A DNA stretch of 31,955 bases from a virus. Position 1 is the stretch's first letter. Each line of letters begins with the position of its first letter. The position numbers and the translations under genes are program-made. The notes below the pieces were generated by a model, which was not told where the DNA came from, made no database searches, and saw only the letters and a program-made list of their open reading frames with translations. Where the stretch lies: UHGV virus genome UHGV-0175171. One strand, written 5' to 3'. Below are positions 11,170 to 14,475 of the stretch, in pieces.

Positions 11170-12686
11170 TGTTTTGGAAAAAGAAAAAGACAGAGGAAAC
11201 ACCACAAGCTAAGAAAAGAACAAAGAGTAAAATTGAATTACTACCAAGTACTTTGAAACGTGACCTTGCACAGATTCGTGGAACATCTTCACCCGTTGTA
11301 AGTTTTGGTTTTACCGCAGGTAGTAGCACGTACAACATTAATAATGTAATCCGTTGGTTCCTTGGTGAAATGCGTTCTACTTCCCGTGAAGCTGCACTTC
11401 ATAACCCCATTGCACGCAAATACGTATCCCTCTCTGTTGATGGTGTTGTAGGTAGCATGGGGGTTTATATAAAACCAGCAGCAGAAATCGAAAACGCTAC
11501 TCCTGATGAATTGCATACTATCAATAAGAAGTTAGAAAAATTATTTGATCGCTGGAGTTCTAACCCAGAGCGTTTCAGTCTTGATGGACAGATGACTCTT
11601 GATGTCTTCCAACAAACTTTAGAAAAAGTTCGCTGTACTGATGGTGAAGCATTTGTACGAATCCATAAGATTAATGGAACAATTAAAATGGAAATTCTTG
11701 ATTCAGCACGTCTGACTCAGATGAATAACCAGATTCTATCTAATGGAAATTTTATAAGCAACGGGATTGAATATAATTCAAATCATAAGCCTGTTAATTA
11801 CTGGATGTGTGCATATAACCCAATCACATATACATATGATGCAACAAACTTTGACGTTATTCCTGCATCAGAAATATTCCATTATTTCATCCCTGAAGCA
11901 ATGGGACAGGAACGTGGTATTCCAGACCTGATCGCAACCAGTAAATTAATGGAGGACCTAAAGAATTTTACAGAGGCTTCTTTGGTGGCAAAACGTGTAG
12001 CGGCATCTTCTATGGCGTTTATTACTAACGGTCAATCTAATACAGACACCGTAGAACTAAACGAAGACCAAGATGATATGGTTACTGCGAAATATTCAGA
12101 GTTTTTAGAACCTGGTGCAATTTACGAACTTAGTTCAAATCAGGATATTAAGACAGTAAACCCACAGTCAGGTGTAGACCGGATTCATGAATTCACTGAT
12201 GAACTACTATCACAAATTGCAATGGGCTTGAATTGTACGAAGATGTCACTTCTCGGGGATACAAGTAATGCCAGCTTCTCAGCCGCAAAACTTTCAGAAC
12301 GGATGCAAAGTACCACTTTCAGTACAAGAACAAACGCATTAGTTACAAAGGTTTTAAAACCAATGTACTTAGCCTGGTTAAAAAATGAAATGGTAAATAA
12401 CAGTGAATTGAATCTTAGTTTCTCTGACTTTGACGATATTTCTACAGTACGAATGATCCCACAGAAGCCTATAAGCCTTGATCCTTTAAAAGATATTCAG
12501 ACACAGGTTGCCCAGATCGACGCAGGAATTAAATCTAAGACTCAGGTGATTAGCGAAAATGGTGGTGATGCTCGTTTGGTATTTGAAGAAATTGAAAAGG
12601 AAAAAGAAATTGTAAATAAGGAAGTTACATTAAATGATGAAACACAACCAGAAGAGGGAAATGACGTTACCGATAAACGCGATTAA
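11169..12686 (+). CDS. portal protein (lambda gpB family)
   Basis: ~505-aa ORF immediately after terL in a Nu1/A-type packaging module. Start placed at the TAATG overlap at 11169 (GGGGGA RBS); the track start is 11154. Confidence 0.75.
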
Positions 12687-14475
12687 TAAAGATAAACGCA
12701 CAATCGAAGTGGCATTTGCAACAGAAACACCTGTCTCTCGATATTTTGATGATGAACTCTATTATGAGATTCTTCTATGTTCTGATGAAAATGTAGACCT
12801 ACAACGAATTAATAATCGTGGTGCCGTTCTATTTGATCATCAACGTGATAAACCCATTGGTGTAGTTCTTAGTACAAGAATCGATTCTGATAAAGTTTGT
12901 CGGGCAACTTTACGCATTAGTGAAGTTGGTCTTGGTGAAACTATGTGGGGAATGATTCTTGAAGGAACCATGTCACATATTAGTGTTGGGTATAACATCA
13001 ACGATTATTACATGGAAAGTAATAACGTGTTTGTTAATAAGTGGGAGCCTACAGAGATCTCACTGGTCACAGTACCCGCAGATGTAAATTGTTCTATCGG
13101 TCGTTCACACGGTGAAGATAATAACTTTAACAAGGAAGTTAAAATGAAAGAAGAAGATAAAAAAGAAGAACGTGAAACTGAATTACCAGAAGAAGAGGGT
13201 ATTGAAGAAGAACGTGAAACTGAACCTGAAGTAGTAGAAGAAGAAATTAGTGAAGAAGAGCGTGAAGAAGAAATTAGTGATGAAGAACTTGAAGAACTAA
13301 TTTCTAAACGTCCTGAATTACTAAAGAAATTTAAAGACTCTGAAGAAGAAGAACTAAATAGTAATGAAGCTGAAGCTGAAGCTGAAGCTGAAGCTGTTGA
13401 TGTAGCCGAAGAAGAACGTAAACGCGAGCTAACTTCAATCGGTGCAGTACTGCAAGTAGACGTATCAGATGCAATTGAAAATGGAATTTCAATTTCTGAT
13501 TTTAAACGTTCACTAAATACAACAAATAACAAAACTCCTAATCATGATAAGGAAATCAAAATGGAAAAATCTGTAATTAATGGTCTAATTCGTGCAGCTA
13601 ACGAAGGTAAACCTTTTGACGGTCAACGTCTTGATGTACCACTGAATCAAATTGTTCGTGCAACTTCTACTGGTGCAGCTACTGGTGGTGCTCTTGTTAA
13701 AGAACAACACGTTGATTCTTATATTGATGTACTGCGTGCAAACTCTATTTTTGCTCAACTACCAATTCAAACTTATTCCGGTTTAGAAGGTGACGGTAAT
13801 CTGGTTCTACCAAAGCTATCTTCTGACTTCACCGAAATGTTCGCATTTATCGCGGAAGGTGAAGATTCTCCAGAAGTAGATGCAAAGTTTGAAAAACTGG
13901 TACTGTCTCCAAAGACTTTTTCCGGTAGCGTACCAATTACCCGTACTCTAATTAAGAGTGCAGACACCGCAGAACGTTATGTACAAAGTGCAATGGTGAA
14001 TGGTGCAGGTCTGAAACTTGAGAAAGAAATTCTAACTAAAATTATCGCAGCAGCACCAAAACAAACCCTAACCGCTGCAATTACCCATGAAGATGTACAG
14101 GAAGCTCTCGGTAAGCTTGCAGCCGCAAACGTTCGTACTGAGAACGTAGTAGCAGTTGTGCACCCATCTACCGCCGCAGTTCTACGCAGTACCATCGTGG
14201 CAAGTAATACCGCTGCTAAGTTTATGGTTGAAGGTCAACGCTTTGATGCATGGTTGTGTGACGCCGTTAAAGTAATTGAATCTACCCAGGTTACAGCAGG
14301 CCAAATCGTTTTTGGTGACTATTCCAATATCGTACTGGCTTCATGGGGTGGTTTGACTGTGGATCGTGATGACACATCCCTACGTGCTTCACAAGGAATC
14401 GTTCTGCGTACCTTTGCATATATCGACCATGCCGTAGCACACGAAGAAGCCTTCCTTGTAGTTAAACTGGCGTAA
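12634..14475 (+). CDS. fused prohead protease (HK97/U35 family) - acidic scaffold-like linker - HK97-fold major capsid protein
   Basis: N-terminus: [32 protein letters not shown] (prohead protease signature). Middle: Glu-rich repeats. C-terminus: long segment typical of HK97-type capsid proteins ([12 protein letters not shown]...[24 protein letters not shown]...). Confidence 0.8.
13366..13395 (+). repeat. perfect (GAAGCT)x5 tandem repeat encoding (EA)n inside the scaffold-like linker; nearby 17-18-bp direct repeats
   Basis: Read directly. Also the 18-mer gaagaacgtgaaactgaa at 13165-13182 and 13205-13222, and the 17-mer gaagaagaaattagtga at 13237-13253 and 13264-13280. Confidence 0.8.

Follow-up and report, generated by a model that had tools for sequence, protein, structure and literature searches.

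The virus genome UHGV-0175171 (31,955 nucleotides; the window, by which we mean this whole stretch of DNA) contains, directly after a portal gene, a single gene that very probably makes a self-processing capsid-assembly polyprotein of a lambda-like prophage head module. The gene is one uninterrupted open reading frame (ORF) on the plus strand (12634-14475, ATG start, stop codon 14473-14475, no internal stop). Its product (613 aa, 68.0 kDa, isoelectric point (pI) 4.6) is predicted to consist of a protease, an acidic spacer, a delta-like scaffold region and an HK97-fold capsid protein. An initial annotation of the window had called the gene a single-ORF fusion of protease, linker and capsid protein, which is borne out by the 613-aa ORF, the presence of both Pfam domains and the existence of fused homologues. 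A hidden frameshift or stop between protease and capsid was looked for and none was found, the ORF being identical in independent genomes. A PHROG scan of 10 neighbouring ORFs gave no sign of a separate protease or scaffold gene in the head module; the canonical order of portal, protease, scaffold and capsid is collapsed into two genes.

In the model that we propose, the C-terminal HK97-fold domain would form the shell of the procapsid, scaffolding would fall to the helical delta-like region (aa 218-342), as it does to the delta domain of HK97, and the disordered acidic spacer would tether the N-terminal serine protease (His69/Ser117). Because it is covalently joined to the shell subunit, the protease would be enclosed in the procapsid automatically. 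After assembly it would cut the chains, with a final cut near Arg342-Ala343, and the protease, spacer and scaffold parts would be degraded, leaving a mature capsid protein with a predicted mass of about 29 kDa, not 68 kDa. Domain identities, conserved residues and folds were obtained directly; the sequence of steps and the precise position of the cut we infer.

Domains of the fused protein

The prohead serine protease domain (HK97 gp4 or Peptidase S78 type) covers aa 1-158 (12634-13107, plus strand), as delimited by profiles, alignment and structure model. Its core runs from approximately aa 11 to 158, with a model confidence (pLDDT) of 79-98 over aa 11-160. Pfam Peptidase_S78 (PF04586) matched aa 63-156 above its threshold (26.9 bits, gathering cutoff 21, E 6e-6), and the 'head maturation protease' family phrog_80 matched with an E value of 1.4e-13. 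The protease motifs that had been pointed out in the N-terminal part are present (FDHQ at aa 67-70, SHISVGY at aa 114-120 and a third motif at aa 141-150). An hhalign comparison with HK97 gp4 (probability only 46%) placed FDH69 on FNH65 and IS117VGY on MS114VGF. His65 and Ser114 we take to be the catalytic residues of gp4. The aligned codons for the predicted catalytic His69 (12838-12840) and Ser117 (12982-12984), both on the plus strand, encode residues that are invariant in an alignment of 29 homologues as well as in one of 84 sequences (25-73% identity); the latter has only 8 invariant columns, Glu45, Leu66, His69, Gly76, Ser117, Glu141, Arg157 and Gly561. Outside the protease domain, a first AlphaFold model made with 29 close homologues was of poor quality, and a model based on the 84-sequence alignment took its place. 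With the first, lower-quality model the top Foldseek match was the T4 gp21 prohead protease (5jbl; probability 1.0, TM score 0.51-0.57, E 5e-3). The profile matches and the conserved residues support the prediction that the N-terminal domain is an HK97-gp4-type (S78) serine protease.

The protease is followed by an acidic low-complexity region (aa 159-257; 13108-13404, plus strand; delimited by composition and model) which is built from DNA repeats and is mostly predicted to be disordered (aa 161-212 in the 84-sequence model). With 45.5% Asp + Glu and a pI of 4.07 it agrees with the Glu-rich middle region of the initial annotation. The region is variable in length and not alignable between lineages; the distance from protease end to capsid start ranges from 157 to 243 aa across the 84 homologues. 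A Pfam scan of the linker alone returned no meaningful family. Tandem Repeats Finder (TRF) identified a 48-nt repeat of 2 copies (13173-13266) and a 27-nt repeat of 2.2 copies (13237-13296), which encode a Glu-rich peptide (13173-13296, plus strand) and are the place of 27-nt and 6-nt indels between close relatives. It also reported a perfect 6-nt repeat of 5.3 copies at 13365-13396. The DNA, read directly, contains the perfect (GAAGCT)x5 microsatellite that had been described earlier, at 13366-13395 (plus strand), encoding (Glu-Ala)5 at aa 245-254.

The earlier suggestion that this repeat could change in length by slippage, to be checked among relatives, agrees with the alleles found. Within the >90%-identity cluster full-length alleles of 613, 611, 610, 609 and 607 aa occur, and E. 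coli proteins that are otherwise ~100% identical differ only by (Glu-Ala)5, 4, 3 or 2 and by one Glu of a GAA run. A group with 96-98% identity has a 9-aa deletion and a shorter, imperfect (Glu-Ala) tract. At the DNA level the indels are 27 nt (exactly the TRF period-27 unit), 9 nt, 6 nt and 3 nt, all of them frame-preserving. The repeat polymorphism is therefore confirmed, although it is of minor interest. The GAAGCT, 27-nt and GAA repeats of the spacer would expand and contract in frame by slippage, and we propose that such changes are tolerated because the region is discarded. Our reading of the variation is neutral drift in a discarded spacer, not a switch. The (Glu-Ala)2-5 polymorphism would then be a clean natural case of in-frame microsatellite drift, and possibly a strain marker for the prophage.

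A helical region resembling the HK97 delta (scaffold) domain extends over aa 218-342 (13285-13659, plus strand), as judged from the TIGR01554 alignment and the model, with predicted helices at aa 216-235, 244-273, 278-283, 287-297 and 314-324. The profile TIGR01554, which represents HK97 gp5 including its delta domain, matched with 77.8 bits (cutoff 27.5) over positions 3-384 of 385. Profile positions 3 to ~100 correspond to the delta-like region, and since position 3 aligns to aa 218, aa 218-342 can be regarded as the counterpart of the delta domain. In effect, the protein corresponds to HK97 gp4 and HK97 gp5 linked through an acidic repeat spacer.

The predicted mature major capsid protein (MCP) comprises aa ~343-613 (13660-14472, plus strand; ~28.8 kDa) and is modelled with the HK97 fold at a pLDDT of ~90-97, with N-arm, E-loop, P and A domains. 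Pfam Phage_capsid (PF05065) matched aa 351-611 (68.5 bits, cutoff 24.2, E 8e-19). The C-terminal HK97-fold domain that had been proposed was thus found by both profile and structure model, and the domain searches and structure prediction that had been suggested as a check gave an S78 match above the Pfam cutoff N-terminally and the HK97 fold C-terminally. HK97 Lys169 falls on Ser412, which is invariant in the close family, in a low-confidence hhalign alignment (probability 4.7%), making a chainmail of the HK97 Lys169-Asn356 type doubtful. The candidate P1 residue of the maturation cleavage before the capsid N-arm, by analogy with HK97 Lys103-Ser104, is Arg342 (codon 13657-13659, plus strand), conserved at ≥90% in the 84 homologues.

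Homologues, known fusions and alternative explanations

Two complete E. coli chromosomes, those of FDN-24 and FDN-9, carry the DNA of the fused gene at 100% identity; RefSeq labels it 'phage major capsid protein' there, a name that hides the protease and scaffold parts, which matters for annotation. The identical 613-aa protein is recorded on 43 contigs. Hundreds of homologues with 64-70% identity exist in enterobacterial prophages (590-654 aa), with PF04586 and PF05065 both in one protein. When 1.84 billion cluster representatives (50% identity) were searched exhaustively with HMMER, 5,677 matched at E≤1e-3 and 208 at the strictest threshold, E≤1e-30; the fusion family is large, with 2,590 representatives at E≤1e-10. 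The best 150 representatives (25-63% identity) are nearly all full-length fusions of ~575-690 aa. The same single gene lies directly after the portal gene in the cultured phages VP882, phiHAP-1, vB_EcoM-ep3, Mica and R4C, and also in RcCronus, S-LBS1, Murka, phiRSP and Persinger. These cultured-phage relatives are recognisable at the protein level only (<35% identity); a megablast search of the phage collection with the head module gave no match.

Two groups of apparent exceptions were rejected. Double 'protease' and 'capsid' coding sequences (CDSs) in E. coli were considered as natural two-gene variants, and turned out to be prophages in decay, in which portals are fragmented and an IS2 insertion and truncations occur. 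Short representatives (157-422 aa), considered as stand-alone protease-scaffold genes ending at the Met310 junction, were contig-end fragments, and one of them (P0140) is frameshifted.

The protease-scaffold-capsid fusion architecture is already known and named. NCBIfam NF045541 is the 'prohead protease/major capsid protein fusion protein'. Among the PHROG families, phrog_617 matched the protein from end to end (aa 3-611, E 1.6e-92) and phrog_4523, 'major head and protease protein', matched aa 4-293. The SEA-PHAGES term 'major capsid and protease fusion' is applied to Arthrobacter phages of clusters AN, AU and AW and Microbacterium phages of cluster EE, one SEA-PHAGES announcement describes protease, scaffold and capsid as 'fused into one', and gp5 of both Pseudomonas phage MD8 and Xanthomonas phage Murka is presented as a single gene or propeptide that comprises protease, scaffold and MCP. 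The N-terminal domain of Murka gp5 is 37% identical to that of the fused protein, whereas MD8 gp5 has a ClpP-type protease instead of an S78 protease. Phages of the Rhodobacter RcC cluster likewise have an N-terminal prohead protease, a scaffold-like middle part and an HK97-fold MCP in one ORF. Xp10, at first taken for a protease-MCP fusion, was dropped, as the literature has separate p08 (ClpP) and p09 genes for this phage.

HK97 gp4/gp5 and the fused protein are alike in protease family (with aligned His and Ser), in capsid fold, in gene order after the portal and in having no separate scaffold gene. However, HK97 has two genes and its gp4 is targeted non-covalently, whereas here both parts are in one chain with an acidic repeat spacer of ~60-100 aa. 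The closest relative with a solved structure is gp6 of Dinoroseobacter phage vB_DshS-R4C (capsid PDB 8GTA; ~28% identity, 64% G + C). Its gene, vBDshSR4C_006 (520-2409 of the locus), has a product of 629 aa whose N-terminal part is an S78 protease domain. In the R4C structure paper the MCP is numbered 1-268 and the C-terminal ~268 residues are modelled in the virion; the paper does not mention protease, processing, sodium dodecyl sulfate-polyacrylamide gel electrophoresis or mass spectrometry (PMC10276861). The mature R4C model begins at the residue aligned to aa 351 of the fused protein, which is consistent with the removal of everything upstream.

Several points weigh against a self-processing polyprotein. 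The score for TIGR01543 was 34.6 bits, below its cutoff of 59, and the hhalign probability for gp4 was low. The protease fold match was obtained with the lower-quality first model only, because capsid matches swamp the searches with the better model, which had only capsids among the matches listed. NF045541 scored 138 bits against a cutoff of 525 and aligned to aa 17-266 only; the fused protein thus belongs to another subfamily. Since the gene for the large terminase subunit (TerL) is frameshifted, this prophage copy may be packaging-defective and may make no particles. In addition, the protease activity, the cleavage sites and the sizes of the products are predictions. The low similarity to characterised proteases (Pfam E value, TIGR01543 and hhalign) would also suit a catalytically dead protease derivative that serves for scaffolding or targeting only, processing being left to a host or another phage protease. 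This is very improbable: of the only 8 columns that do not vary across the 84 diverse homologues, two hold the His and Ser aligned with the gp4 pair, the scan of the head module revealed no second candidate for a protease, and the R4C virion capsid protein is without its N-terminal ~360 residues. The fused gene might also be a pseudogene or an artefact, two or three separate genes having been joined by a frameshift, a lost stop or an assembly error. Other damage in the same prophage, namely the TerL frameshift at an A7 run, and the annotation of separate 'protease' and 'capsid' CDSs in some E. coli relatives point in this direction, but the 'split' E. coli versions are the decayed prophages with fragmented portals and the IS2 insertion mentioned above. 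The identical sequence in independent complete genomes and on 43 contigs, the full-length fusions among hundreds of 64-70% homologues and nearly all of the best 150 representatives, and the same single gene in cultured phages (VP882, phiHAP-1, ep3, Mica, R4C, RcCronus and Murka) leave practically no room for an artefact, which is already refuted by the conservation data. Finally, a GAAGCT copy number of 2-5 among near-identical strains might suggest that the linker repeats are a contingency (phase-variation) locus that switches capsid expression or virion properties. We consider this extremely improbable, because every indel seen (6, 9, 27 and 3 nt) is a multiple of 3 and keeps the frame, the repeats are in a predicted-disordered region expected to be cut from the mature capsid, and the linker length is free to vary between lineages, as for a weakly constrained spacer.

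Candidate internal start sites

In addition to the processing described above, the polyprotein gene may have an extra layer of expression, in which conserved internal Shine-Dalgarno (SD)-ATG sites would also give co-terminal, protease-free products. The full-length 68-kDa chain would then be a minor product that carries the protease, as is the case for lambda C/Nu3 and herpesvirus UL26/UL26.5. The annotated start has an SD-like AAGGA (12618-12622; anti-SD duplex -6.3 kcal/mol), an 11-nt spacer and the ATG at 12634 (whole site 12618-12636, plus strand), with the same arrangement in family members. It lies within the 3' end of the lambda-type portal gene (11154-12686, plus strand; assigned from PHROG and relatives, with PF05136 in the relatives), which it overlaps by 53 nt. 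Relatives have overlaps of ~26-65 nt, the usual overlap for coupling being 1-4 nt. This long overlap may limit initiation of the full-length, protease-carrying product, and the 11-nt spacer (versus 7 nt at the internal sites) together with the position inside the portal gene would fit weaker initiation.

The better candidate is formed by AAGGA (13549-13553), 7 nt and an in-frame ATG at Met310 (13561-13563; whole site 13549-13563, plus strand), for which nucleotide conservation provides the evidence. Its product would be 304 aa (32.5 kDa), a capsid protein without the protease and most of the scaffold. In ten family genes (62-72% nucleotide identity) the site is AAGGA-N7-ATG in nine and AAGGA-N10-ATG in one. 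Lys is encoded in these genes by AAA 222 times and by AAG 79 times, and all 10 genes have AAA at the nearby invariant residues Lys309, Lys312 and Lys356 (Fisher test on AAG codon bias at the Met310 site, p = 1e-7, phylogeny uncorrected). Frame-0 AAG-GA occurs 14 times in total, of which 10 are at the Met310 site, 3 at the Met171-type site described below and 1 is without a downstream ATG. Extended to 16 genes, the Lys of the Met310 site is AAG in 15, with AAA at 58-85% of Lys codons; the chance of at least 6 of 7 lineages having AAG is 0.0025. Peaks of synonymous-site conservation (aa 293-301, 348-356, 306-314 and 280-288; z 2.2-3.5) cluster around Met310.

The site is also conserved at larger distances. 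In 18 proteins (29-62% identity), 26 columns do not vary, Lys306 among them, and Met310 is conserved at ≥90%; the pattern is K-[D/E/G]-x(1-3)-M, within a stretch that varies elsewhere and is predicted to be disordered. Four distant representatives (31-43% identity) have AAGGA with Lys as AAG 10 nt before a Met310-type ATG, which is the strongest or second-strongest SD-ATG pair in each of them. The motif is found in 24/24 members of the ≥30%-identity clade, is mostly absent in the VP882/R4C clade, and is present as AAGGA-ATG in Escherichia phage DCP80. Internal initiation at Met310, yielding a protease-free 32.5-kDa product, is therefore a prediction to which we give slightly better than an even chance.

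The second candidate, at the protease/linker boundary, consists of AAGGA (13132-13136), 7 nt and an in-frame ATG at Met171 (13144-13146; whole site 13132-13146, plus strand) and is suggestive only. It would give a scaffold-capsid product of 443 aa (48.5 kDa), the counterpart of HK97 gp5. The mRNA at both candidate sites is weakly structured (~80th percentile on average), like that at the annotated start. Distant fused phage genes that were examined, except those of S-LBS1 and Murka, have an in-frame ATG with an SD-like motif 15-55 aa past the protease, examples being R4C (GGAGG), VP882 (GAGGT) and DCP80 (AAGGA). R4C thus has a strong SD-ATG after the protease domain (-9.5 kcal/mol) and no Met310-type site. 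No peak of synonymous-site conservation was present at Met171, and in the 84 homologues an excess of Met is confined to the first 30 aa after the protease (phylogeny uncorrected). A 48.5-kDa protease-free product initiated at Met171 we consider a fair possibility, though less likely than not.

In the Citrobacter freundii homologue P0004, the same 17-nt sequence GATAAGGAAATCAAAATG leads up to, and takes in, both the Met168 and the Met326 start candidates (locus positions 2002 and 2476), and it looks as if an internal ribosome-binding site was duplicated.

Among protease-scaffold genes, lambda C/Nu3, herpes simplex virus 1 (HSV-1) UL26/UL26.5 and archaeal HFTV1 gp17/gp17.5 are established cases of nested in-frame starts. 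In these systems the internal start gives an abundant protease-free assembly protein and the full-length protease is rarer; conserved in-frame SD-ATG sites are likewise found in the fused gene. However, lambda, HSV-1 and HFTV1 have the capsid protein in a separate gene, whereas here the co-terminal products would all carry the capsid domain, and internal initiation is a suggestion drawn here from sequence conservation. A three-in-one nested gene, making the 68-kDa chain, the 32.5-kDa capsid protein from Met310 and perhaps the 48.5-kDa scaffold-capsid protein from Met171, seems to us an evenly balanced proposition. If true, the ratio of protease, scaffold and shell would be set by three start sites in one frame, and the principle of lambda C/Nu3 and UL26/UL26.5 would be extended to the capsid protein itself. 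The conserved internal start sites might be the only new element of the system. No report of internal initiation in any protease-capsid fusion was found in the searchable literature, nor a record of a shorter primary translation product from an internal start in the literature on fused relatives; the accessible parts of the published accounts of MD8, Murka, RcC and SEA-PHAGES fusions make no mention of internal initiation or repeat polymorphism. Likewise, no experiment on the assembly of such polyproteins or on control of the protease dose was found in the literature. The conserved SD-ATG sites offer a concrete and cheaply testable answer to this question of protease stoichiometry.

The alternative, to which we attach a considerable probability somewhat short of even, is that only the full-length 613-aa polyprotein is made, with protease and capsid subunit at 1:1, and that the internal SD-ATGs reflect protein-level constraint or are relics of ancestral gene boundaries between a protease-scaffold gene and a capsid gene. 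A relic should decay at synonymous positions, yet Lys is AAG in 15/16 genes while neighbouring Lys codons are AAA in 10/10. Homologues with as little as 29% identity retain Lys306 and Met310, in a part of the protein predicted to be disordered, the Lys-Met spacing of 4 or 5 residues (7 or 10 nt) is better explained as SD-ATG than as a peptide motif, and in most genes the Met310 site ranks first or second in strength among the SD-ATG pairs. Against internal initiation, and in keeping with a full-length product only, are the synonymous-shuffle tests of SD strength, which were individually weak (per-gene p 0.03-0.4). These modest values arise because the upstream amino acids largely fix the motif, and a Met171-type start is therefore not claimed as established. 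A Met within 75 aa after the protease domain occurs in 74/84 homologues with 82% expected, which is chance level. S-LBS1 and Murka have no good boundary SD, a fifth distant representative (P0141) has a weaker AAAGGT, none of these three having any good internal SD-ATG, and P0135 has Phe in place of Met310. Local recombination could also give a peak of synonymous conservation. Moreover, the published accounts of MD8 and Murka treat the product as one propeptide, and by our own estimate ~415 x 38 kDa of protease plus linker fits a T=7 procapsid.

Prophage context and neighbouring genes

The element is an AT-rich prophage (32-40% G + C) in ybhA, beside a large serine recombinase gene (23-1738); the G + C content of E. 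coli is ~51%. In FDN-24 it is located at 1170790-1204631 of NZ_CP158147.1. The prophage is rare: among 5,426 complete E. coli genomes, 2 carry an identical copy and 6 others a distant relative. Upstream of the portal gene the PHROG scan identified the small terminase subunit (8234-8791), two pieces of TerL (8706-9158 and 9208-10620) and a W-like head-tail joining protein (10630-11169). Downstream of the fused gene are ORFs of 98 and 145 aa without matches, followed by tail genes.

TerL (8706-10620) is split into ORFs of 150 and 470 aa in different frames, with an A7 run at 9143-9149 and the junction sequence GAATTAAAAAAATGGTACTAA; with A6 in place of A7 the frame would read through. RefSeq has the same two TerL CDSs in FDN-24. 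This prophage copy may be defective in packaging, unless slippage on the A-run rescues it. FDN-24 also contains an IS3-family element (prophage locus 18422-19650; ~14782-15219 here) in or next to the 145-aa gene downstream of the capsid, and this gene is intact in the UHGV-0175171 copy.

The closest cultured-phage homologue of the lambda-like portal and fused-capsid module is that of DCP80 (PQ671644.1, 5210-8386), in which both internal SD-ATG sites are present (Met180 and Met321). There the module lies at 4-8 kb of a 141-kb record classed as Tevenvirinae (T4-like), which would not be expected of a phage of this kind; the record is possibly chimeric.

Among the tail genes, 15223-16905 encodes a 560-aa protein with an N-terminal major-tail-protein domain (phrog_158) and tail-fibre-like C-terminal repeats. 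A second, short phrog_158 major-tail-like gene (19814-20290) lies 3 kb downstream, from which it appears that the tail-tube gene is duplicated or decorated.

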